64,000 bases of DNA, taken from NCBI GenBank assembly GCA_020631855.1, contig JACKGU010000001.1:103601-167600 (forward strand), given 5' to 3'. The position numbers were made by a program, and so were the translations under genes. This DNA comes from Candidatus Nomurabacteria bacterium (lineage in GTDB: Bacteria > Patescibacteriota > WWE3 > UBA101185 > UBA10185). Below are positions 715 through 59,232 of the stretch, in pieces. Position 1 is the first letter of the stretch, and every line of letters starts with the position of its first letter. Below the pieces are notes generated by a model, which saw only the letters and a list, made by a program, of their open reading frames with translations, searched no databases and was not told the DNA's origin.

Positions 715-1165
715 ACGTTTAGCCTTGTTAGGCCAAGGTAATAATACCTACATGCTTCAGGACAGGAGAAGCAAGTTATTATTATGCTAGGACAGTTTCA
801 TAAGAATAACAAGCGACCCGTATTGTATAATTAAGAACTTAACATCGTTGCTAAGAGGGAAAATTTGTGTGTTAGCAATTAGCGTTGAGGTTTTAGTTTC
901 GCCATCATAACCCTATAGTATTGACAGATTAGGCGTTTTATTATAGAATACCTCTATAAATAAACACAACTAATAATCAATAAATACATATAATAAAGTT
1001 TAACTTCTGATTTTTGCCTGAATCAGCAGTTTAAATTAAACAGCTGAACAGCACCTTAAAATGCTATAAAATGGGTTTTCGGGCTAGGGTTGAGACGCGG
1101 CATTGTTCTGTATAAATTACTCTACTCCTTTCGGTTCTGCGCACTCTGCGTAAAAAGCAGTTTTC

Positions 1166-1222
1166 GTTGCCAGCATTTTTTTGGACTTGAGTTAAAATCA
1201 AGCACAAAAAAATGCTGGCAAC
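1166..1222. repeat. Perfect 17 bp inverted repeat GTTGCCAGCATTTTTTT / AAAAAAATGCTGGCAAC around a 23 nt loop, inside the GC-rich island
   Basis: Seen directly in the sequence. The loop contains a smaller CTTGA/TCAAG hairpin. Confidence 0.6.
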
Positions 1223-1292
1223 TTGCCTGCAGTAAACCAGCCCCCCCCGGGGGCAAAAAATGGGCACAACAGTGCCCAAGGAGAGTAGTAGA

Positions 1293-1703
1293 ATGATTTT
1301 CCAAGGAAAAGACCTCATCGAGGGCCTAGAGAAGGCCCAAAGAGAAGTCCGGTCGGCGTGAGCCGACCTATACTCGCGGGAGCTGGCATTAGAAGAAGCG
1401 CGTCGTAACGCGATACTTCATGCGGAGGCAGTAATTGCCTTTGCGACGCCCCCCGCCCCCGTCCCGGCCCCCACGGCCCCCCCGGTCTCGGCCCCCACGG
1501 CCCCCCCGGTCTCGGCCACCACGGCCCCCCCGGTCTCGGCCACCAAGACTGCAGCGTACGCCCTCGTACTGTTGCTTGTTTTGTTGTCGGCTGTTTTTTT
1601 AGTATTTTTTGTCCCTGAGCTCTCGCTCGAGGCAAGCCTTGTGTATGCTCTTGCGATCGTACTGTTTCTCTCGGGAGGTGCTTGGGTCGCAAAGCGACTC
1701 TAA
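1293..1703 (+). pseudogene. Small Pro/Ala/Thr-repeat membrane-anchored protein frame, interrupted by an in-frame TGA at 1359-1361
   Basis: An ATG at 1293 follows a GGAGAG Shine-Dalgarno-like site. The same frame runs on after TGA(1359) through a 3x APTAPPVS repeat and a hydrophobic helix (AAYALVLLLVLLSAVFLVFFV...LVYALAIVLFLSGGAW) to TAA at 1701, and an intrinsic terminator follows. There is no ATG, GTG or TTG after the TGA. Confidence 0.3.
1467..1538 (+). repeat. 24 bp GC-rich tandem repeat x3 (GCCCCCACGGCCCCCCCGGTCTCG), coding APTAPPVS x3 on the + strand
   Basis: The direct repeat is visible in the sequence. It is a strong GC outlier against the AT-rich background. Confidence 0.8.
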
Positions 1704-1705
1704 AA

Positions 1706-1747
1706 CCCCCCCCGCACCGGCGGGACCAGTTTTGTTTTTTTCTCTTG
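1706..1747 (+). terminator. Rho-independent terminator (CCCGC-ACCG-GCGGG stem-loop followed by a T-run)
   Basis: A GC stem plus TTTTGTTTTTTT sits immediately after the TAA at 1701-1703. Confidence 0.5.
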
Positions 1748-1975
1748 CATTTTTTACCTTATAGTGTATAATGCATCATTAACAATAGTTTAATAACTTA
1801 TTATATTTATTGTAATTTTTATTCCTGCCAAGTAACAAATAAAAAAGCTTTTGTCCTGCACCTTCTATTTATGGTTTTAGAGATAGAGTAGATTGGTTGG
1901 GTTTGGTTACGCCCTTACGCGACCAATCTATTTTATTCCTAAGGCCTTATAGCGAGGTTTACAGGAGTACTTCAT

Positions 1976-2908: not shown

Positions 2909-4369
2909 ATGCCTACAGCAAAAAAAGTTCATTCTGACAGAGATCAGATTGCGCAAAAAAATAGCGATAGCTCTATTAACACGGACGGCTCAAATGGGTC
3001 CGCAGTCGTAGAAGCAAAAAGCTTATCCGATAGCTCGACGTCCAATAACCCCGAGTCGAAAAATAATACCTCAGTCTCAAAGACTGATCAGGACGACGTT
3101 TCTGCTGTTAGAACAACGGTAATTACAACCGAATCTAGGAATAATAAATCCCACCAGTCTCGTGGAAGGCACTCGTCAGGTTCTTCCGGAAACAACGGAG
3201 GAAACTCTGGGACTACAAATTCTTCTGGAAATAGCAAGTTTTTTACAGGCGAAACTATTAAGGTCGAGGGTGTTTTAGAGCTTTTTACAGATTACGGTGT
3301 TATTAGGCAGGATATTGCAGACACAGGAGATAACGACTTGCCGAAAGATGTTTATACTAGCCTTTCGCAGATAAAAAGATTTAGTTTAAGAATGGGTGAT
3401 TTGGTTGAAGGCTATGCTCGTGCACCAAAAGAAGGTGAGAGATATTTATCATTGTTGCAAATAGAAAAGGTAGATGGGTTAGATCCTTCCGAGGCAAAAA
3501 AACGACCAAGATTTTCTAAACTAACCCCCATTTTTCCTGATGAGTGGATGAAGCTGGAGACAGCTCCTGAAATCTTATCGACAAGAATCATAGACCTCGT
3601 TTCCCCTATAGGTAAGGGGCAAAGAGCCATGCTTGTTGCGCCTCCAAAAGCGGGTAAGACCTGGTTATTACAAGATATAGCGAATGGTATTACAAAAAAC
3701 CATCCGGAAGTAGTATTAATGGTAGCTCTTATTGGCGAACGCCCTGAGGAAGTTACCGATATGAGAAGAAACGTAAATGGGGAAGTATACGCCAGTAATT
3801 TTGATCAGGATCCTGCTGATCAAACTCGTGTAGCAGAGATTTGCCTAGAAAAGGCGAAAAGAACCGCGGAAAAAGGAAAAGATGTTGTAATACTTATGGA
3901 TTCTTTAACCAGGCTTGCTAGAGCTTACAATATGGTAGTTCAGCCTTCTGGCCGCACACTAACCGGTGGTTTTGATCCTTCTGCTCTGTATCCTGCAAAA
4001 AGATTTTTCGGCGCTGCCAGAAATTTAGAAGAGGGCGGTAGTTTAACAATTATTGCTACTGCGCTTGTTGATACCGGTTCTAGAATGGATGACGTAATTT
4101 TTGAAGAGTTTAAAGGGACCGGAAATATGGAGTTAAAGTTGGATAGAGCTTTGTCCGAGAGAAGAATTTTTCCGGCGATTGATATAAAATCAAGCAGTAC
4201 AAGGCGGGAAGATTTGTTATACGATAAAAATTCAATGGAGATGGTGCATAAGTTAAGAAGAATGATAGATTTGCTTGATGACAAAGAAACTACCGACCTT
4301 GTTCTACAGCAGCTCAAAAAGTCTAAATCCAACGAGGATTTCTTGAAGACGCTAGGCCAGCCGGCCTAA
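2909..4369 (+). CDS. rho: Transcription termination factor Rho with an N-terminal low-complexity Ser/Asn-rich insertion
   Basis: The Walker A motif 'APPKAGKT' and Rho motifs such as 'VALIGERPEEVTDM' and 'GGSLTIIATALVDTGSRMD' are present. Confidence 0.9.
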   Translation: MPTAKKVHSDRDQIAQKNSDSSINTDGSNGSAVVEAKSLSDSSTSNNPESKNNTSVSKTDQDDVSAVRTTVITTESRNNKSHQSRGRHSSGSSGNNGGNSGTTNSSGNSKFFTGETIKVEGVLELFTDYGVIRQDIADTGDNDLPKDVYTSLSQIKRFSLRMGDLVEGYARAPKEGERYLSLLQIEKVDGLDPSEAKKRPRFSKLTPIFPDEWMKLETAPEILSTRIIDLVSPIGKGQRAMLVAPPKAGKTWLLQDIANGITKNHPEVVLMVALIGERPEEVTDMRRNVNGEVYASNFDQDPADQTRVAEICLEKAKRTAEKGKDVVILMDSLTRLARAYNMVVQPSGRTLTGGFDPSALYPAKRFFGAARNLEEGGSLTIIATALVDTGSRMDDVIFEEFKGTGNMELKLDRALSERRIFPAIDIKSSSTRREDLLYDKNSMEMVHKLRRMIDLLDDKETTDLVLQQLKKSKSNEDFLKTLGQPA

Positions 4370-11484: not shown

Positions 11485-12177
11485 GTGAGCAGCATCACAG
11501 AATATATAAGAAGAAATTCATATGTTGTCAGTGCGATGGTCGGGCTTTTGATAGCGCTATTATTTACATTGTTTTTATTGTTTAATGCGGCACCGGAGAG
11601 CAAAAATATCTATTCAGATGATGCTTCGGATGGAACTAATAATGACAATGAGGGACCAAAGATGATATACGTCGACATAGGCGGAGCTGTTGCAAACCCG
11701 GGCCTCTACGGCTTTGAAGAGGGGGCTAGGTTGAATGATGTTCTTGTTCAGGCCGGGCCTTTTCTTGATAACGTTTCTTTTGATTGGGTTTCTAAGCAAT
11801 TAAACTTGGCCGAGCCCGTGAAAGATCACCAAAAAATTTACATACCGTTCGATTTTGATATACAGGCCGAATGTTCAGGAACGGTGGTTATAGATGAGAT
11901 TGTTTTTACTCCTCAGATCGATAATTCTTCGCGAAACAGCAATAATGAAAGGATCTCGGTTACTCCTGTTGTGGATGCTTCTGATGACGGCGATCCGCGG
12001 TTTGTAAATGTAAATACAGCTTCCGTCGAGGAGCTGGATAAGCTTCCGGGTATAGGAGATGTATATGCAGGGAGAATAGTTTTAAACAGGCCTTACGCTA
12101 ATCTGGAAGACTTAAAGACCAAAGCAGATCTATCTGACAGCGTAGTAAGCAAGATCTCAAGTTTAGTGGTTTTCTAG
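11485..12177 (+). CDS. comEA: Competence protein ComEA (SLBB domain plus helix-hairpin-helix DNA-binding domain)
   Basis: The C-terminal 'VNVNTASVEELDKLPGIGDVYAGRIV' HhH motif and the N-terminal transmembrane anchor are present. Confidence 0.8.
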   Translation: MSSITEYIRRNSYVVSAMVGLLIALLFTLFLLFNAAPESKNIYSDDASDGTNNDNEGPKMIYVDIGGAVANPGLYGFEEGARLNDVLVQAGPFLDNVSFDWVSKQLNLAEPVKDHQKIYIPFDFDIQAECSGTVVIDEIVFTPQIDNSSRNSNNERISVTPVVDASDDGDPRFVNVNTASVEELDKLPGIGDVYAGRIVLNRPYANLEDLKTKADLSDSVVSKISSLVVF

Positions 12178-13346
12178 TGTTTTGGTTAAAGAAGCATTGG
12201 TTTCATTTAACTTTTCTCTTGTTGTGTCTCGTTCGAGTTGGGCATTATTTTTATGATGTTCAGGGCGGCCTTATATGTATAAGAGAGCGTGTTTTTACAT
12301 CTTCGAGGGAAAGCTCAGAGACTCCGATAGCGGTTCCGGGATCTTTTTTCAGCACAACTGCTTATAGAGTTAGGGGAGTGCTGTTCGTTTTTCGTGAAAA
12401 AGTTGACTTGTTTAAAAAACTAACAACGCTCTTAGTTCGAAGGTCTTTGCCTAGTCCACATAGTGAGCTGCTTTTGGGCAGCACCCTCGGTATAAATGAT
12501 TTATCTCTCGTGCCCAGGTTTAACGACGTCGTGGTCGTAACCGGCACTATACATGTGATTGTAGTGTCGGGGTACAATATATCTTTGGTTTCAGGCATGG
12601 TCACCCGAGCTCTTGGCTCGAAGTACAGAAGAAAAAACTTTATTATTGCGAGCTTAGGCACATTTGTGTATGCGGTAATATCAGGATTTGAGCCTCCGGT
12701 TATTCGTGCTTGGATAATGGGGACGATAGCCTCTTACGGAACTTTTTTGGGGAGAAAAAATGATATCGTAGGGGTTTTATTTGTATCTGCCGAATCTATG
12801 CTGTTGGTTCAGCCGGCTTTTATATGTAGCTTAAGTTTTCAATTAAGTTTTCTTGCAACCTTGAGCTTGTTGTTTTTTTCTTTTGCGGTATCAAGGGTAC
12901 TTAGTTTTATAAATAAAAGCCGCCTTGGTAGGTTATTTTATCAGGATCTGGTGGCAACTGTTTCTGCACAGATTTTGGTCTTGCCGTTAATAGCTTTTTC
13001 TTTCGGACGTATTAGTCTTGTTTCTTTTGTTGCGAATGCTTTATTACTTTGGACAGTGCCTTTAGCCACAGTTTACGGATTGGCGTTGCTTGCTGTGCTT
13101 TATTTAAGTTATTTCCTCAATTTTTGGCCATTTGTCTTTTTGGCTAAAATAATTTCAGCATTTGTTTTTGTTTTTTTAGATATTTTTATTAGGGGTGTGT
13201 ATTTTTTTGCCGCCGTCCCGTACGCTAACATAGATTTTAAAATGCCTCTAAGAGTTTTACTTATGTATTACTTTGCGTGTTTTCTAGTGGTTCTGGCGCC
13301 AAAGTTTTTTTCTCGTTTAAAAATTTTTTCTTCCGAGAAAGCCTAG
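12177..13346 (+). CDS. comEC: ComEC/Rec2 membrane competence-domain portion (N-terminal part of a split comEC)
   Basis: It is a polytopic membrane protein carrying the competence-domain motif 'GTIHVIVVSGYNISLVSGM' (compare GxxHxLxISGxH). The start overlaps the comEA stop. Confidence 0.7.
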   Translation: MFWLKKHWFHLTFLLLCLVRVGHYFYDVQGGLICIRERVFTSSRESSETPIAVPGSFFSTTAYRVRGVLFVFREKVDLFKKLTTLLVRRSLPSPHSELLLGSTLGINDLSLVPRFNDVVVVTGTIHVIVVSGYNISLVSGMVTRALGSKYRRKNFIIASLGTFVYAVISGFEPPVIRAWIMGTIASYGTFLGRKNDIVGVLFVSAESMLLVQPAFICSLSFQLSFLATLSLLFFSFAVSRVLSFINKSRLGRLFYQDLVATVSAQILVLPLIAFSFGRISLVSFVANALLLWTVPLATVYGLALLAVLYLSYFLNFWPFVFLAKIISAFVFVFLDIFIRGVYFFAAVPYANIDFKMPLRVLLMYYFACFLVVLAPKFFSRLKIFSSEKA

Positions 13347-13374
13347 TCATAACCTTGTGTTTATGTAGGATATC

Positions 13375-14253
13375 ATGCTTAAACATTTAGCCATTGCTAC
13401 TTTATATTATTTAATTCTAGGGTCTATTGAGCTTTTGGGCCTGTATTCTAATATTCAGCCAGCTATAAAAGCCTACGATGTAGGTCAGGGAGATGCGCTT
13501 GTTTTAATAACTGAAAAAGGAGAAAAGGTTCTTGTTGATGGAGGTCCGAGCTTTGATCTTGACTACAAATTGCTTTCAGACTTTCCTTCTATGGATTTTT
13601 GTCCTATAGATGTTGTTGTGCTTACACATCCTCATGCAGATCATTTGCAAGGATTATATAGATACGTGTTGAGATGCTCGCCTAATTATATTGTTTTTGA
13701 TAACGCTATTTATGATTCGAAGTTATATTTTGATTTTAAAAATGAAGTTGAACGGCATGTTATGGAAAATACTTCCGTTCATTTAACTTCGAATCAGTTT
13801 AAAAGTAATTTGTTGGGGATTGAGGTGTTGTGGCCGCCTGAAAATTTTGATTTTCGACGTGTTGATAATATTAATAATGTCTCGATAGTGTTGTTTTACA
13901 ATTCTAAGGCGGCCACCCCAGCTTTACTACTAGGTGACTTAGAAAAAGACTCTCAAAGCCTGATGCTACGTGAAATACTTTTTGAGAATGAGGGGAATGA
14001 GATTCCCTTTAATTATAATCGATTCAGCGGCACGTCTTCTAAGCAGAGTGCCGTACTAAAACTTGCACACCATGGGGCAGAAAACGGGCTGAACAGGCAG
14101 TTGTTTAATATTTTTTCTCCTTCTGAATGTTTAATAAGTGTTGGGGAGAAAAATTCATATGGACATCCCTCGAGCATTACTTTGAAATATGCAGAAAACT
14201 TTTGTGAAATACTACAGACCGAAATATTAGGAGATATTACTCTACCTCTGTGA
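13375..14253 (+). CDS. comEC: MBL-fold metallo-hydrolase corresponding to the ComEC C-terminal beta-lactamase domain (second part of the split comEC)
   Basis: 'DVGQGDALVLI' and the 'HPHADHLQG' HxHxDH motif are present. It sits 29 nt after the previous ORF in a different frame. Confidence 0.7.
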   Translation: MLKHLAIATLYYLILGSIELLGLYSNIQPAIKAYDVGQGDALVLITEKGEKVLVDGGPSFDLDYKLLSDFPSMDFCPIDVVVLTHPHADHLQGLYRYVLRCSPNYIVFDNAIYDSKLYFDFKNEVERHVMENTSVHLTSNQFKSNLLGIEVLWPPENFDFRRVDNINNVSIVLFYNSKAATPALLLGDLEKDSQSLMLREILFENEGNEIPFNYNRFSGTSSKQSAVLKLAHHGAENGLNRQLFNIFSPSECLISVGEKNSYGHPSSITLKYAENFCEILQTEILGDITLPL

Positions 14254-19439: not shown

Positions 19440-19527
19440 TGGCGGAGGGGGAGGGATTCGAACCCTCGTGTGCTTTCACACGCACGGTTTTCAAGACCGG
19501 CCAGATAAACCACTCCTGCACCCCTCC
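19440..19527 (-). tRNA. tRNA-Ser (anticodon UGA), type II with a long variable arm, CCA encoded
   Basis: The reverse-complement folds with acceptor GGAGGGG/CCCCTCC, anticodon loop CT-TGA-AA, variable stem GTGTG/CACAC and T-arm GAGGGTTCGAATCCCTC. Confidence 0.8.
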
Positions 19528-47363: not shown

Positions 47364-50300
47364 CTATTCAGATTTCAATACCCACCAGTTGAATGAAGAA
47401 TCTTCGTCTATTGTCTTTGATATGCTTACTTTGAAACTCTCGCTCTCTGTAATCTTACTAACATACAGTTGTTGTCCTTTGGTGTCTGTGGTTGGGGTTA
47501 TAAATACTATCGCATCTTTACTAATGCCCCTCACCTCTACTGTTACAGAACTTTCCCCACTCTTTATCGCGCTTTGTCCTATTGTTTCGCTATTTGAGAG
47601 ATACTTATAATCTTGCGCTGTTATGGTTTTAGCTTCAACCTCTCCCTCAATACGAACTGTTCCATCTGCTTCAAATAGAATAGCGCCGTCCATAAAATCT
47701 ATGTTTCCGGACAGATTCTTTTGGAAGTATATGGTTTGTAGTTCACATAGTTCTTCATTTAGGCTACCTGTTGCTTTGGTGTAACATGAAGGTCCAATAA
47801 CACTAAGCTCGTTTGTTAGAGACTCAAGTCTAATGCTTCCAACTTGAAGATCTTTGGTAATTGTTAAACCACCAAGTGTTGTATCTCCTGTAACTAGGAA
47901 GTTTGCATCAAGGGTCATTGTTGTAGTACTGTCTTGAGTTTGAGTAGTAAGTCCAAGAGCTTCTGCGAATCCTTTAAAGGATTCATATGTATCTTTAAGC
48001 TCTTGAATCTTGGAATCAATGTATGTGGTATCTTCAGGTGTGACTTCGATTGTATTAGTTTGAGTTAGATTGGTTTGAGTTTCCGTATCAACTTCAAGCT
48101 GTGCTAATTGTTCTTGCAGATCCTCGATCTTCTGCTCTTGTTCTTGGATACCTTTAATAAGGTAGGGGACTAGATGGTGGTATTCAATTGACCATGTGTT
48201 TGCGGGATCATCAGGTTTATCAACTACCTGCGGTAGATACTCATATACATCTTGAGCAATAAGCCCTGTTGCTCTTCCTCTATCTGCCCATTTTGTTCCT
48301 TCTTTCCAATCAAAATCAACAACTTCAAAACGATTAATTAATTCAAGTGCATTAAGATTTGATGTTTCAATATTATCTTTAAGTCTTCTATCTGATGCTG
48401 TAACGTTAATAGAAGCATTACCGATATACATAGTAGTTGAACCTGAACCATTTGACGAGTCATCAAGTAGATTAGCATCGACCGCGTTACCTATATGAAA
48501 GCCTCCTCCTGCATATACAATATCTCCGACATCTAAGAAATCTCTAAAGTAGCTATAGCCGTTTGAAACTCCAACATGAAACACTTCATCATAGATATCT
48601 CTAACCACAAAACTCTTACCTGATGTTCCTCCTGCATCAAGACGTAAATATCCATCTCCGCTACCGAAGCTTTCTGTATAGAGAGAGGTGCTCTTGCCGT
48701 AGCTGTCTTCCAGTTTAAAACTTCCAAGAACATGCAATTCGGCGCTAGGGCTAGTGGTTCCGATTCCAACGACCCCCTTTAGTAGTGTAGTAAGAATGCT
48801 GTCGTTTCCTAGTACAACGCTGTTGCTTCCGGCTCCGATAGCCCCAAATCCTATTACTACCTCATTTTCTCCGCCATCTGCTAATGCCTTAGTTTGCGAC
48901 CCGAGATACAAGGATGTAATGCTAGTTGAATTAGGACTTGCGCCGTCTGCCAAATATGTTCCTGCAAAGACCCCAATAGCGGTGTTCCAGTACCCTGTTG
49001 TGTTGTGATACAAAGAAGCTACGCCTGATGTTGTGTTGTAACTACCTGTAGTATTTTCGTATAGAGCTTGTTCCCCAAATGCGCTATTGCTTGATCCCGT
49101 AGAGTTTGTATATAAAGTTTCAAAGCCGACCCCGGCATTACTTTGTCCGGTTAAGTTAGAGTAAAGAGTTCGGTAGCCTGTAGCTATGTTTTGACCCCCC
49201 GTGCTGTTTGCTCGGAGAGCCTGGTGGCCGAGGGCAACGTTATAATATCCGTAAGTGTTTAAATATAAAGCTTCAGATCCGAATGCAATATTATAGTTTC
49301 CGGTAGTGTTTGAGGACAGCGCGTAAGCTCCAAAGGACGAGTTTTGACTGCCCGAAGTGTTTGCTTGCAAAGAGAAGTAACCAACTGCTGTGTTGTCAAT
49401 CCCTGTCGTATTTGTTGTTAACGAAAAGTATCCAACCGCTGAGTTTTGGCTTCCTGTAGTGTTTGAGTATAGAGCGTAAGATCCAAAGGAGGAGTTGTAG
49501 TTACCTCCTGTGTTTGTATATAAAGCCCCGGAACCTACAGCTGAATTTCCGTTCCCACTAACGTTTGAAAATAAAGCTTGATAACCTAAGGCTGCGTTGT
49601 CGCTGCCGGTAGTATTGTACCTTAAAGCCGTATAACCAACCCCAACATTATAGTTCCCTGTAGTGTTTGTACGAAGCGCATTGGTACCAAATGCAGAGTT
49701 ATAGCTTCCTGTTGTATTTTGTCTTAGCGTATAGGGCCCGACTGCGGTGTTGTAGCTCCCACTAGTGTTTTCATATAAAGCGAAATATCCCGCTGCTAGG
49801 TTATAGTCTCCTGTGGAGTTTGAGTACAAGGTAGAAGTGCCTAAAGCTGAGTTATAGCTTCCGGTAGTGTTTGAGTATAAGGCACTTCTTCCTATTGCAA
49901 CATTTGAGTTTCCTGTAGTGTTTGAATACAAAGCAGAATATCCAAATGCAGAGTTATAGCTCGCTGTAGTGTTTGAGTACAGTGCGCTACTCCCTACAGC
50001 AACATTAAAGCTTCCCGAAGTATTAAAGATTAGCGCGTCTCTACCGGTGGCAATATTGTCGGTTCCGACAGTATTTCTAAACAAAGCATTTGTTCCTGTC
50101 GCAATGTTATTGCTCCCGGTGGTGTTAAAATATAGGGCGGATATGCCTGAGGCAATGTTATAGTTGCCTGTAGTATTGGTGTATAAAGTAGTTCCGCCTA
50201 TGGCAATGTTGCCGGTTCCAATAGTGTTGTAATACATAGAATTGTTTCCTACAGCAACGTTGCTTCCCCCCGTAGTGTTTCTTCGGAGCGCGCTGGGACC

Positions 50301-52937
50301 AAATGCATAGTTATAACTTCCCGTTGTATTGGAAGATAAAGAGTCATTTCCTAGAGAAATATTACCTGTCCCTGTAGTGTTTGAGAATAAAGCTAGATAA
50401 CCGGCTGCAATGTTATTGCTGCCGCTTGTGTTTGAATATAGCGCGAAAGCTCCGGCGGCAATATTATAATTTCCTGTAGAGTTGGAGTATAGAGCACTAT
50501 TTCCGAATGCAGTGTTGAAACTTCCTGTAGAGTTAAAGTACAAAGCATTGTAACCCGTTGCAACGTTAGAGTTTCCTGTGGTGTTCGAGTAGAGCGCATA
50601 AGATCCGGTAGCAATATTAGCAGGACCTGAAGTATTGCTAGCCAAGGCATAGTCTCCGGTAGCAATATTATAATTTCCTGTAGAGTTAAAGTATAGAGCA
50701 TAAAATCCCGCAGCAAAGTTATAGCTTCCTGTGGTGTTTGAGTATAGAGCGTGATCTCCTGTGGCAATATTATTGGCCCCTGAAGTATTTGAATATAGAG
50801 CACTTCCTCCTACAGCAATGTTCCGATTTCCTGTAGAGTTAAAGTATAGTGCGTTGTAGCCTGCAGCAATATTGTTTCCTCCCGTAGTGTTAAAATACAA
50901 TGCGTAGTTACCTAGAACCAGGTTGTAACTCCCTGTGGTGTTGGAAGCTAGTGCATGTTTACCTAAAGCCACGTTGCTGACTCCTGTGGTGTTGTTGAAC
51001 ATAGCAAAGGGGCCAAAGGCTAAATTGTCATTACCGGTAGTGTTTGAATATAGGGCCGAGCTTCCAAAGGCTGAGTTATAGTTTCCGTTAGTGTTTGAAT
51101 ATAGGGCGGCGGCTCCTAGGGCGGAGTTATAGTTTCCGCTGTCAATATTGCTCAGGGCCCCTGCACCTACTGCTGTATTTGAGCGACCATACGTTAAAGT
51201 ACTCAGTGCGTTATAGCCCAGCCCGGTGTTATAGCTCGCAATACTAGCATCCGGAGAACCCTGTCCTAGAGTAAAATTTCCGCTATTCTCCCCTACAAAT
51301 GTGTTTTGTCCTGTATTACCTTCCCAGTGATAATTGTGGATAAAACTTGCGGACTCTTTATATATGACTCCTGTAGTAGGGGAGCTTGTATTTTCCAATA
51401 CCATTGCTCCTACTAAATCTAGCGCTTGCGCAGGGGCAATTTTTCCTATCCCCACATTACCGCTTGAGTCTATGACAAAAGGTGAAGTATCTCCCGCGGA
51501 GTCGTTCACTAAAAACGATACCCCTGTTCCTGTATTTGTAAGTGAGAACTGATTCGCTCCTGTAATAGCTATATCTGTCGAATCGTCGAGGGTCATCGCA
51601 TCTTTAAATTCAGTGAAGTCTAAGCTGTCGGGACCGACAGAGGCAGCCCCTACAGTTGTCCAGGCCAGAGTACCATTACCGTCATTTGCAAGTACATAGC
51701 TGGCGGCCCCGGCTTGTGTGGTTGGCCATGCGTAAGTAACATTATTTATTTTAATAATGTCCCCTGAGGCATTAACTTGAAATTGAGATGCTGTGCCAAC
51801 CGAAAGAGGGGACTGTGGGTTATTTGTATTTATTCCCAAGGCATGTGTTGCGCTGTTATAAAATAGATACGCTGTGTCTTGCATGAAACCGCTTCCCGAA
51901 CCAAAAATTATGCCGCCTTCATCTGCAGTAGATCCTTCTAAAAAATTTAGTTCTTCGGCGGTAGCATTTACATTTGTTCCTCCTATACTCCAGGTGCCTC
52001 CTATGGCCAAAGTTCCGTTTAAATTAAAATTATCTTCGTACGTGAAGTCTGGCACCAGATTATTACCGTCTATAATGTTGTCTGCAAGAGCATTCGCATT
52101 TAGAGTTCCAATAATGTCGCCTGTAAGTTCCAACGAGTTTTCAAGAGAGTTTTTAGAGACCGCATCTATTGCCAGCAAGCCGTTTATTGTCGATGCTCCG
52201 GTAAAGTTTATGGTTGTAGTTGAGACGCCCCCTTCAACTGTTGCCGGGCCGGTGATATTTAATGAGCTCAATATGTTTGTTGGTACATTTAGAGTAAATC
52301 TGAGTTCAGGAGATCTGGCTCTTGCGGCTAAAACCTCTGCCTCTTGTCGTTGTATTCTTTGAGTGCCTTTTTCATCTCCCCGCTTATAGTTTGCTATATA
52401 TTTTTTTATTGATAGTGCACTTTGTATATTTTTATCGGGAGTTTCGCGGCTTAGATTATTGAAATCTTTTGCAATTGTTATTGCCAACAAAGCAGCACCT
52501 ATTACAACTGAGGCCAAAATAGCTTTTTTAAATACATTGTTTTTTTGTGTTTTTGCCACTGCTCGTTTTAAGGGGCCCTGTTTAAATTTAACCTTTTTCA
52601 CAATATTTTTAGCTTCTGTTTTAGCAGTTGATTCTGTTGGTTTGCTAGCACTGCTTTCGCTAAGATTTTCTTTGGGCCTTGTATTTATGGGAACATATGC
52701 AAGGTTTTCGATCGGGTTTTTTGTCGTATTAAGTCTGTGATTTTTATAATTTATTATGTCATTGACATTAAAACGCCTGTATCCGTTAGCATCTCTGTTC
52801 TCTATGATTATTGCTTGTTCTGCTAACCTTCTTACGGTAGAGGAGGAGACCCCCAGTATTTTAGCAGCCTCCGAAACAGATAAGAGATTGTTTGATTCAG
52901 AATTGTTTGATGTGTTTTTAATATTTTGGGCAGACAT
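47364..52937 (-). CDS. Giant (1857 aa) protein with an N-terminal excisionase-type HTH, a transmembrane helix, GIGT collar motifs, about 40 copies of a 17-aa 'ALYSNTTG..N.A.G' beta-helix repeat, and a C-terminal peptidase-S74 chaperone domain
   Basis: 'LLSVSEAAKILGVSSSTVRRLAEQAIIIENRDANGYRRFNVNDII' matches HTH_17. The transmembrane helix is 'AILASVVIGAALLAITIA'. A long periodic Gly/Asn/Thr repeat array follows. The C-terminal 360 aa are identical to giant protein 1 through the 'SDRRLKDNIE' CIMCD motif. Confidence 0.75.
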   Translation of the reverse strand: MSAQNIKNTSNNSESNNLLSVSEAAKILGVSSSTVRRLAEQAIIIENRDANGYRRFNVNDIINYKNHRLNTTKNPIENLAYVPINTRPKENLSESSASKPTESTAKTEAKNIVKKVKFKQGPLKRAVAKTQKNNVFKKAILASVVIGAALLAITIAKDFNNLSRETPDKNIQSALSIKKYIANYKRGDEKGTQRIQRQEAEVLAARARSPELRFTLNVPTNILSSLNITGPATVEGGVSTTTINFTGASTINGLLAIDAVSKNSLENSLELTGDIIGTLNANALADNIIDGNNLVPDFTYEDNFNLNGTLAIGGTWSIGGTNVNATAEELNFLEGSTADEGGIIFGSGSGFMQDTAYLFYNSATHALGINTNNPQSPLSVGTASQFQVNASGDIIKINNVTYAWPTTQAGAASYVLANDGNGTLAWTTVGAASVGPDSLDFTEFKDAMTLDDSTDIAITGANQFSLTNTGTGVSFLVNDSAGDTSPFVIDSSGNVGIGKIAPAQALDLVGAMVLENTSSPTTGVIYKESASFIHNYHWEGNTGQNTFVGENSGNFTLGQGSPDASIASYNTGLGYNALSTLTYGRSNTAVGAGALSNIDSGNYNSALGAAALYSNTNGNYNSAFGSSALYSNTTGNDNLAFGPFAMFNNTTGVSNVALGKHALASNTTGSYNLVLGNYALYFNTTGGNNIAAGYNALYFNSTGNRNIAVGGSALYSNTSGANNIATGDHALYSNTTGSYNFAAGFYALYFNSTGNYNIATGDYALASNTSGPANIATGSYALYSNTTGNSNVATGYNALYFNSTGSFNTAFGNSALYSNSTGNYNIAAGAFALYSNTSGSNNIAAGYLALFSNTTGTGNISLGNDSLSSNTTGSYNYAFGPSALRRNTTGGSNVAVGNNSMYYNTIGTGNIAIGGTTLYTNTTGNYNIASGISALYFNTTGSNNIATGTNALFRNTVGTDNIATGRDALIFNTSGSFNVAVGSSALYSNTTASYNSAFGYSALYSNTTGNSNVAIGRSALYSNTTGSYNSALGTSTLYSNSTGDYNLAAGYFALYENTSGSYNTAVGPYTLRQNTTGSYNSAFGTNALRTNTTGNYNVGVGYTALRYNTTGSDNAALGYQALFSNVSGNGNSAVGSGALYTNTGGNYNSSFGSYALYSNTTGSQNSAVGYFSLTTNTTGIDNTAVGYFSLQANTSGSQNSSFGAYALSSNTTGNYNIAFGSEALYLNTYGYYNVALGHQALRANSTGGQNIATGYRTLYSNLTGQSNAGVGFETLYTNSTGSSNSAFGEQALYENTTGSYNTTSGVASLYHNTTGYWNTAIGVFAGTYLADGASPNSTSITSLYLGSQTKALADGGENEVVIGFGAIGAGSNSVVLGNDSILTTLLKGVVGIGTTSPSAELHVLGSFKLEDSYGKSTSLYTESFGSGDGYLRLDAGGTSGKSFVVRDIYDEVFHVGVSNGYSYFRDFLDVGDIVYAGGGFHIGNAVDANLLDDSSNGSGSTTMYIGNASINVTASDRRLKDNIETSNLNALELINRFEVVDFDWKEGTKWADRGRATGLIAQDVYEYLPQVVDKPDDPANTWSIEYHHLVPYLIKGIQEQEQKIEDLQEQLAQLEVDTETQTNLTQTNTIEVTPEDTTYIDSKIQELKDTYESFKGFAEALGLTTQTQDSTTTMTLDANFLVTGDTTLGGLTITKDLQVGSIRLESLTNELSVIGPSCYTKATGSLNEELCELQTIYFQKNLSGNIDFMDGAILFEADGTVRIEGEVEAKTITAQDYKYLSNSETIGQSAIKSGESSVTVEVRGISKDAIVFITPTTDTKGQQLYVSKITESESFKVSISKTIDEDSSFNWWVLKSE

Positions 52938-53077
52938 AAAACTTTATCAAATACCGCTATGTAGCAATTTGATAACCAATCTAATAATAAGTAAATAATA
53001 GTTCGATGTCAAATGATTATATCTGTCAAAAAGGTCAAGTTATTGACTTGTGATGCCTGTTTGCGTATGCTTTTTAT

Positions 53078-56589: not shown

Positions 56590-59232
<2,643 letters not shown>

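Follow-up and report, generated by a model that had tools for sequence, protein, structure and literature searches.

Short genomic islets that carry ORFan genes stand out from their surroundings by a contrast in GC content, by the absence of homologues, and by a location at a synteny break beside a conserved operon. The element described here shares these features. It is a GC-rich island with an interrupted open reading frame (ORF), located near the left end of a 64,000-nucleotide stretch of the genome of a Candidatus Nomurabacteria bacterium (assembly GCA_020631855.1, contig JACKGU010000001.1, forward-strand positions 103,601 to 167,600). This whole stretch is called the window below, and all positions are counted from its first letter. 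Like other ORFan islets, the island has its own promoter-like and terminator-like signals and a single in-frame stop. It differs from them in being very small (one ORF of ~0.5 kb), with no mobility marks found and no donor lineage that could be named. Islets of this kind can also be pseudogenized.

Other described systems resemble parts of the island. In bacteria, the selenocysteine insertion sequence (SECIS) is a stem-loop that starts directly 3' of the UGA and has an apical loop ~16 to 37 nt farther downstream. The island shares with selenoprotein genes an in-frame UGA and a stable hairpin, but its UGA lies in the apical loop, and there is no Cys-containing homologue of the island, no redox motif, and no tRNA-Sec within the window. 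Like proteins with an LPXTG sorting signal (NCBIfam model TIGR01167), the product of the island frame is encoded directly upstream of a sortase and has a C-terminal helix and a basic tail, preceded by P-E-x-x. Unlike them, it lacks an LPXTG motif (the residues are VPELS), a signal peptide, and a passenger domain, and it does not match the profile. In E. coli, the rho gene is autoregulated through its leader. Rho attenuators with a leader peptide are known from tnaC, speFL, and CruR; Rho loads preferentially on C-rich RNA that is not being translated, and premature stops lead to Rho-dependent polarity (PMC12360218).

We lean, tentatively, toward reading the island as an orphan gene cassette, specific to this species and coding for a small membrane protein, that replaced a conserved gene for an LPETG-anchored surface protein and was itself interrupted at codon 23. 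The reading builds on the composition of the island, its frame and periodicity, its reproducibility across assemblies, the lack of homologues, and the replacement of the LPETG gene, each of which is observed. The original prediction had left a choice among an inactivated gene, a case of stop-codon readthrough or recoding, and noncoding DNA that happens to stay open. The first of these is favored here, recoding is unsupported, and the noncoding open frame is kept as a lesser rival.

An interrupted frame of foreign composition

The mean GC content of the window is 0.396. The island departs from this value over a core of ~500 bp (~1225 to 1730), in which GC is 0.655 to 0.68 in 200-nt windows at 1301 to 1600 and rises to 0.90 in the 50-nt window 1450 to 1499; the richest 150-nt window of all 64 kb (GC 0.76) lies at 1426. 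A GC-rich island of ~680 bp had originally been drawn from 1064 to 1747. The strong GC excess was confirmed, but the left part of that interval (1064 to 1224) has an ordinary GC of 0.30 to 0.52, and only the core is GC rich. In the frame that opens at ATG 1293, GC by codon position is 0.68/0.50/0.65, compared with ~0.47/0.41/0.35 in neighboring genes. Eight of the nine Ser codons in this frame are TCG (10% genome-wide), and CCC, GCC, GTC, and CTC are overused relative to the genome. Both the composition and the codon usage of the island are foreign to the genome. No further copy of the island or of its palindrome was found within the window, nor did the island show an integrase, a tRNA, direct repeats, or any other mark of mobility. 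Terminal repeats and target duplications were considered and rejected, the only matches being weak (74 to 81%).

On the plus strand, a Shine-Dalgarno sequence precedes ATG 1293, which opens 22 codons (MIFQGKDLIEGLEKAQREVRSA) ending in TGA at 1359 to 1361 (the whole unit at 1279 to 1361). After the TGA, the same frame runs on for 113 stop-free codons (1362 to 1700) to a TAA at 1701 to 1703, and the full read-through frame has 136 codons. This bears out the original description of a frame that meets a TGA after 22 codons and then stays open to TAA 1701, with the Shine-Dalgarno sequence reading AGGAGAG. The accompanying statement that no ATG, GTG, or TTG occurs between the TGA and the transmembrane helix also held: the first canonical start past the TGA in this frame is TTG 1572, which lies within the first hydrophobic helix. 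A second in-frame ATG at 1260 gives a 33-codon upstream ORF that ends at the same UGA. The N terminus encoded from 1293 (MIFQGKDLIEGLEKAQ) is hydrophilic, and the first hydrophobic segment begins at residue 87. In the post-TGA product, a helical-looking segment is followed by a Pro/Thr/Ala linker and then by two hydrophobic helices and a KRL tail. No Cys codon occurs in the frame.

The frame contains a 24-bp (8-codon) tandem repeat on the plus strand at 1456 to 1545, for which TRF gave a period of 24, 3.8 copies, and 95% matches, in agreement with the repeat in the original prediction. The unit GCCCCCACGGCCCCCCCGGTCTCG occurs in two exact copies at 1467 and 1491 and in a third copy at 1515 with one mismatch. 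The tract around it (1441 to 1550) has a C content of 0.59 and a G content of 0.24, with a range across the tract of 0.59 to 0.67 for C and 0.23 to 0.25 for G, and its peak 60-nt window (C 0.67) is the most C-rich of the 64 kb.

We then analyzed whether base usage in the island follows the frame. The high-low-high pattern of GC by codon position was seen separately before the TGA, after the TGA, and in the hydrophobic part. For the 66 nt before the TGA, the values were 0.64/0.32/0.64, and their own test was not significant (p = 0.13). For the post-TGA codons outside the repeat, we found a position-specific base bias (chi-square 28.2, p = 8.6e-5), with G increased at position 1 and T increased at position 2. 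The same test in four flanking noncoding windows gave p values of 0.10 to 0.71. A minus-strand ORF of 125 codons (1692 to 1315) was rejected as a gene: its codon position 1 is C rich and its GC is lowest at position 3, which is the mirror image of the plus-strand frame. Since the Shine-Dalgarno sequence and ATG, the G1/T2 periodicity in frame, the 8-codon repeat unit, and the TAA followed by a hairpin and U-run all point the same way, the island most probably evolved as protein-coding DNA, in a frame that continued through the position of the present TGA, as judged from this one sequence.

A read error at the TGA had been named as a finding that would refute the original prediction. Using exact matches to the sortase protein encoded downstream and to a 59-residue ORF at 611 to 790, we found contigs from many independent data sets, a few of which span the island. 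The island, including the hairpin that holds the TGA, is identical in the window, GCA_020631805.1, SRR12358676, SRR14234113, and GCA_035593565.1 (the last up to position 1500), save for homopolymer lengths. The same TGA is thus present in all four to five independent assemblies that span the site, and a read error is not the explanation. The poly-C run just after the TAA (1706 to 1713) is C8, C9, C10, or C11 depending on the assembly, which is either slipped-strand variation or a homopolymer sequencing problem. The C8 run at 1240 to 1247 is constant in all five assemblies that cover it. Many other contigs end within the 24-bp repeat or at the poly-C run; these are ordinary break points of de Bruijn graphs.

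TGA is used as a stop in this genome, as had been noted for its conserved genes. It ends 13 of the 47 long ORFs in the window, including those for an F-type ATP synthase alpha/beta-family subunit (57539 to 58996), glycogen synthase (glgA), a GH57 enzyme, and the metallo-beta-lactamase part of comEC, and long ORFs, with 742, 1860, and 2062 codons, remain unbroken under table 11. Given these conserved genes and long ORFs, an alternative code (table 4 or 25) is not supported. The UGA of the island lies inside the 4-nt apical loop of a hairpin at 1351 to 1368 and not 5' of a SECIS stem, a geometry that does not fit a SECIS element, although no dedicated SECIS search was made; the earlier remark that no SECIS-like element was obvious holds. 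The sole Rfam call for tRNA-Sec in the window (19444 to 19527, minus strand; 47.7 bits against a threshold of 47) has the anticodon UGA and a 7-bp acceptor stem and was reassigned to tRNA-Ser, in agreement with ARAGORN. Selenocysteine is unsupported as far as the 64-kb window shows.

The slot upstream of sortase and rho

Downstream of the island on the same strand lies a conserved operon that includes a class F sortase gene (1976 to 2770) and rho (2909 to 4369), which encodes a 486-residue Rho. The exact Rho and sortase proteins are labeled "candidate division WWE3 bacterium" in NCBI and UniRef, and once "Candidatus Nomurabacteria"; the nearest sortases are only 42 to 60% identical. The original prediction tacitly assumed a Saccharibacteria-like epibiont of Actinobacteria; with the two proteins labeled WWE3 and not Saccharibacteria, that assumption has no basis. 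A search of genome contigs with Rho returned mostly distant bacteria and, as useful relatives, only L011 and L012. Eight related loci were compared (L011, L091, L093, L094, L099, L100, L101, and L102).

The gene order is the same in all eight relatives: a gene for a surface protein of ~205 residues is followed by those for sortase, Rho, and a LysM/M23 peptidase and then by obg, with a conserved RNA hairpin between the surface-protein and sortase genes. Besides its LPETG anchor, the surface protein carries a DUF11-type repeat and a signal peptide; it scores 20.3 bits against the NCBIfam LPXTG-anchor model (TIGR01167; cutoff, 15.9). In the present species, the island ORF occupies the slot of this LPETG gene, on the same strand, with its stop at 1703 located 272 nt 5' of the sortase ATG at 1976. 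No DUF11/LPETG surface-protein gene was found in the slot or anywhere else in the 64-kb window. Conversely, a GC island is absent from the slot in all eight relatives; the maximum 150-nt GC of their loci is 0.45 to 0.64 and is located elsewhere, and the maximum C content is 0.43. The gap between the upstream gene and the sortase gene in the relatives is 107 to 266 nt and is largely taken up by a 79-nt hairpin described below. The left neighbors of the cluster vary by lineage (glycosyltransferases, an epimerase, or giant proteins in the relatives; RadA-TRAM-SpoU here), and since they differ in every lineage, the island sits at a synteny break point. Conservation of the island with the same TGA in related low-GC genomes had been named as the finding that would point to a functional structured RNA and away from transfer. 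The island is missing from all eight relatives and is seen only at the species level. The class F sortase of this species is left without a neighboring substrate gene.

To look for relatives of the island itself, we searched protein, DNA, and RNA collections. The read-through protein gave nothing meaningful in Pfam, PHROGs, NCBIfam, PADLOC, or PDB sequence searches, and no match at E values up to 10 in a word-indexed search of 5.8 billion protein clusters. An exhaustive HMMER search of 1.84 billion representatives gave four matches, all to low-complexity Pro/Thr regions in long proteins. Phage and plasmid collections yielded no DNA match by blastn, and phage tblastn gave one match only, to a mycobacteriophage, at E = 0.5. 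A peptide-pattern scan found nothing in viral contigs and, in metagenome contigs, only the same species. Rfam 15, whose families include tmRNA, RNase P, SRP, 6S, riboswitches, large ornate RNAs, and introns, had none above the gathering threshold for positions 580 to 2000, with only microRNA-type matches to the long hairpin at E values up to 10, and ARAGORN found no tmRNA or tRNA within the island. When positions 583 to 1975 were compared with the loci of the relatives by tblastn, tblastx, and nhmmer, only the sortase-proximal hairpin was in common. Since an intact ORF in any sampled genome would have been called and found, the element appears to be confined to this species.

The high GC content had been taken as compatible with a fragment acquired from an actinobacterial host. 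None of our searches returned a homologue, and the relatives themselves keep GC-rich orphan genes over deep divergence, so the proposed origin is not supported. A secreted orphan protein of 308 to 495 residues is encoded 5' of the LPETG gene in L093 (2662 to 3588), L094 (2930 to 3868), and L102 (5001 to 6488). These genes have a GC of 0.55 to 0.56 and a third-position GC (GC3) of 0.56 to 0.59, compared with 0.38 to 0.40 and ~0.30 in adjoining genes, and the family has three members among 5.8 billion clusters, with 40 to 42% amino acid identity. Like the island, they are GC rich, nearly free of homologues, and located in the variable region 5' of the same cluster in AT-rich, WWE3-like genomes; unlike the island, they are intact, carry signal peptides, and coexist with the LPETG gene. 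No sequence similarity between the two was detectable (hhalign probability of the island ORF against the 308-residue family, 0.1%). Since GC-rich orphans recur at this location, and since one has preserved its composition despite deep divergence, high GC is no sign of recent import. The nearby DNA uptake genes dprA, comM, comEA, and comEC, which had been cited in favor of transfer, are indeed present, but their proximity is uninformative about the island, because dprA and a comEA-like gene also lie a few kilobases downstream of the sortase cluster in L094 and L091, both of which lack the island. No donor can be named; the island may be a mobile element that has not been sampled or a local gene that evolves fast.

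Signals, mechanism, and rival explanations

The best promoter-like site 5' of the island is TTGACA-17-TAGAAT at 921 to 949 on the plus strand, which matches the consensus at 11 of 12 positions and whose putative function is read from that match; it would give a leader of ~335 nt before ATG 1293. Within the leader lies a long AT-rich imperfect palindrome at 1166 to 1222 (57 nt; 28-nt arms, 89% complementary, with the outer 18 bp perfect; dG -35.1, z -8.4). A GCCCCC(CCC)GGGGGC hairpin at 1240 to 1254 (plus strand) marks the left edge of the GC-rich core. It is followed by an antisense intrinsic-terminator-like element at 1278 to 1251 on the minus strand, a 7-bp hairpin (TGGGCAC-TGTT-GTGCCCA) followed by T6, which on the plus strand is a hairpin at 1261 to 1278 directly 5' of the Shine-Dalgarno sequence. 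The in-frame TGA sits in the four-base loop of a perfect 7-bp hairpin at 1351 to 1368 on the plus strand (GGTCGGC-GTGA-GCCGACC; dG -15.1, z -3.4). The "long perfect hairpins" of the original prediction were borne out in part, since the long one is imperfect and the perfect ones (1261 to 1278, 1322 to 1339, and 1351 to 1368) are short, 6 to 7 bp. After the TAA, a hairpin followed by U7 (1701 to 1746, plus strand; dG -12.1, z -1.4) is a plausible intrinsic terminator, as had been claimed, but it was not flagged by a consensus scan. Between this hairpin and the sortase gene there are a promoter-like site at 1779 to 1807 and a minus-strand promoter-like site at 1838 to 1809.

Compared with shuffled sequences, positions 1064 to 1747 fold with a z of -6.0 on the plus strand and -6.9 on the minus strand; for the leader (950 to 1292) and the ORF, z is -6.8 and -3.0, respectively. 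In the minimum-energy fold of the leader, CUCUACUCCUU (1119 to 1131) pairs with the Shine-Dalgarno region AAGGAGAGUAG (1278 to 1291), enclosing the long hairpins. This modeled pairing may sequester the ribosome-binding site of the island ORF.

If the island is an interrupted gene cassette, it would comprise the promoter-like site, the structured leader of ~335 nt, the Shine-Dalgarno sequence and ATG, the 136-codon frame, and the terminator-like hairpin, and the encoded protein would have had a helical N terminus, a tandem-repeat Pro/Thr/Ala linker, and two transmembrane helices. Judging from the features of the frame, it was most likely translated in the past and is most likely inactivated by the UGA. 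Ribosomes starting at 1293 (or at ATG 1260) would be released at the UGA, and from 1293 nothing more than a 22-residue peptide would be made; the rest of the frame is most likely the remnant of a gene that was inactivated recently. The next ~340 nt, including the most C-rich tract of the window, would be left free of ribosomes, and Rho could then load on the bare C-rich RNA. Because untranslated C-rich RNA is preferred by Rho and premature stops cause polarity, transcripts would be expected to end within or shortly after the island in a case of nonsense polarity.

The same arrangement could act as a leader-peptide attenuator of the sortase-rho operon, in which the 22- or 33-codon ORF ends at the UGA and the repeat, ~85 nt downstream, serves as a Rho utilization (rut) site in negative feedback on rho. 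Like tnaC-tnaA, speFL, CruR, and the E. coli rho leader, the island places a short ORF with a strong Shine-Dalgarno sequence just before a C-rich tract, the top of the 64 kb in C content, on the same strand and directly 5' of an operon that contains rho, and the short, hairpin-filled gaps in the relatives suggest cotranscription. Attenuators of this type and Rho-dependent polarity are established (PMC12360218). Unlike the described attenuators, however, the island has nothing comparable in any of the eight relatives, which speaks against a conserved regulatory design. It also shows no recognizable stalling motif, its coding-like periodicity extends beyond the stop, the tract is separated from the sortase gene by a terminator-like hairpin and a promoter-like site, and a G content of 0.24 with flanking stable hairpins is not ideal for rut. 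We therefore regard an attenuator as unlikely, and as very doubtful its more specific form, in which the fixed UGA would be a functional switch: termination of the leader ORF would expose the repeat to Rho and attenuate sortase-rho, with Rho sensing its own level, and occasional readthrough or stalling at the hairpin-embedded UGA would relieve the attenuation. If true, this specific form would be a newly evolved Rho autoregulatory leader derived from an orphan gene in a candidate-phylum bacterium, and an attenuator of either form would offer a testable case of Rho autoregulation in an uncultured lineage. Folding that beats shuffled sequences over the whole interval and in the leader, perfect GC hairpins with 4- to 5-nt loops (the loop with the TGA, GUGA, is of the GNRA type), the clean minus-strand terminator, and the minus-strand promoter-like site would fit a lineage-specific structured noncoding RNA on either strand or a DNA-level hairpin cluster, with the open frame, which would arise by chance in 4 to 13% of cases, as a by-product of GC-rich, stop-poor sequence. 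Such an RNA is quite unlikely: Rfam has no family for it at E values up to 10 save the meaningless microRNA-type matches, ARAGORN finds no tmRNA, the three-base G1/T2 periodicity and the 8-codon repeat are unexpected for an RNA gene, and a GC of 0.75 to 0.90 is far beyond what structured RNAs of a mesophile need.

A functional 136-residue membrane protein made by UGA readthrough or recoding, through a near-cognate tRNA, selenocysteine, or assistance from the hairpin, would explain why the frame is kept exactly over the TGA with a similar codon-position pattern on both sides and why the TGA, within a very stable hairpin, is fixed in all assemblies. We consider it highly improbable, given the lack of SECIS-like geometry, of a tRNA-Sec in the window, and of a Cys or redox motif, the use of TGA to end conserved genes while ORFs of 700 to 2,000 codons stay intact under table 11, and the failure of protein searches to return an intact homologue with a sense codon at the TGA position. 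Equally improbable, in our judgment, is that the frame is a diverged vertical descendant of the LPETG sortase-substrate gene, with VPELS, LEAS, the helix, and KRL as its decayed sorting signal. The slot, strand, and approximate distance to the hairpin and the sortase gene are those of the eight relatives; MAFFT sets VPELS under LPETG and aligns the helix, GG, and basic tail without gaps to L091, and tblastn with the L091 substrate matches 1611 to 1694 in the ORF frame. That match, however, has an E value of 4.5, hhalign of the eight-member family profile with the ORF gives a probability of 1.4%, and the NCBIfam LPXTG-anchor model misses the island ORF even at E values up to 10. The ORF also has no N-terminal signal peptide or DUF11-type domain, and its last 93 nt have a GC of 0.56, compared with 0.35 to 0.41 in the sorting-signal DNA of the relatives. 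Finally, breaks within the repeat or at the poly-C run are common among the assemblies, as might happen if contaminant GC-rich reads had been joined into the contig, but the island is spanned by four to five independent assemblies of separate runs, with the same sequence and the same flanks on both sides, and an assembly artifact or chimera is exceedingly improbable.

Several observations weigh against the interrupted gene cassette that we favor. Conservation gives no confirmation of past translation, as no homologue was found, and the sampled strains are essentially clonal at the island and offer no polymorphism for a test of selection. An open post-TGA frame is only marginally unlikely, as 4% of dinucleotide shuffles keep it open, and the density of stable hairpins is atypical for a coding region. 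In one Logan assembly (L005, SRR14234113, ~940 to 950), a C8 run replaces the C7 run of the first repeat unit (window positions 1477 to 1483), which would shift the frame. An intact inactive remnant of this size is also somewhat unexpected in a streamlined genome.

Two small-element classes were also considered and rejected. For a type I toxin-antitoxin system, the peptide with a Shine-Dalgarno sequence is hydrophilic and has 22 residues, and the hydrophobic 43-codon ORF from TTG 1572 has no Shine-Dalgarno sequence; as to the antisense RNA, the minus-strand terminator at 1278 to 1251 is present, but no minus-strand promoter was found close by. A holin was rejected because there is no hydrophobic peptide with a ribosome-binding site.

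The conserved sortase-proximal hairpin and gene turnover at the locus

To the right of the island, sequence with counterparts in the relatives begins with an RNA hairpin of ~79 nt at 1870 to 1949 (plus strand), just 5' of the sortase start codon. In WWE3-like genomes, counterparts were found in L011 (4859 to 4936), L012 (4925 to 5004), L091 (2313 to 2390), L093 (4894 to 4971), L094 (4910 to 4988), L099 (2838 to 2917), L100 (2878 to 2956), and L101 (2910 to 2986). RNAalifold predicted 29 pairs from six sequences. Compensatory double changes occur at 14 of these, around an internal segment (GGUUGGGUUUGG / CCUUACGCGACC) that is invariant and contains U-U mismatches. A covariance model built from the six scored 67 to 74 bits in three relatives outside the training set, always on the sortase strand. 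In 17 Rho loci of other phyla, it gave one weak match only (L015, 24.5 bits, E = 0.004). Rfam has no family for the hairpin. Within the LPETG-sortase-rho transcription unit, it is a candidate for a new element with a role in cis regulation or in processing. The hairpin is arguably of greater interest than the island and merits a separate study.

Other features of the window were recorded in passing. Ahead of its RNA-binding domain, Rho has a long low-complexity extension over its N-terminal ~110 residues (2909 to 3250), with many Ser, Asn, Gly, and Thr residues. Rho has 392 to 455 residues in the relatives, compared with 486 here, and the rho matches in L011 and L012 align only from about residue 67 to 72. 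The 59-codon plus-strand ORF at 611 to 790 is called as a gene in GCA_020631805.1 and has no family match; a minus-strand terminator-like hairpin at 668 to 683 (CGCTCC-TTAT-GGAGCG followed by T6) overlaps it, with no obvious minus-strand gene to end. The comEC gene is split into two adjacent ORFs, 12138 to 13346 (Competence domain) and 13369 to 14253 (metallo-beta-lactamase domain). Tandem-repeat arrays of 51 bp and 102 bp (49800 to 51138) lie in an 1,860-codon minus-strand ORF (47364 to 52943).

On present evidence, the feature is real and reproducible yet ordinary in kind, an islet at a variable locus whose orphan gene carries a nonsense codon. The high GC of such genes in these genomes is unreliable as evidence of recent transfer from a high-GC host. 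If the island is an interrupted orphan cassette, it would be a small, clean case of how genes turn over at one variable site of a reduced candidate-phylum genome, in which a conserved sortase substrate gene was replaced by a compositionally alien, already interrupted orphan.

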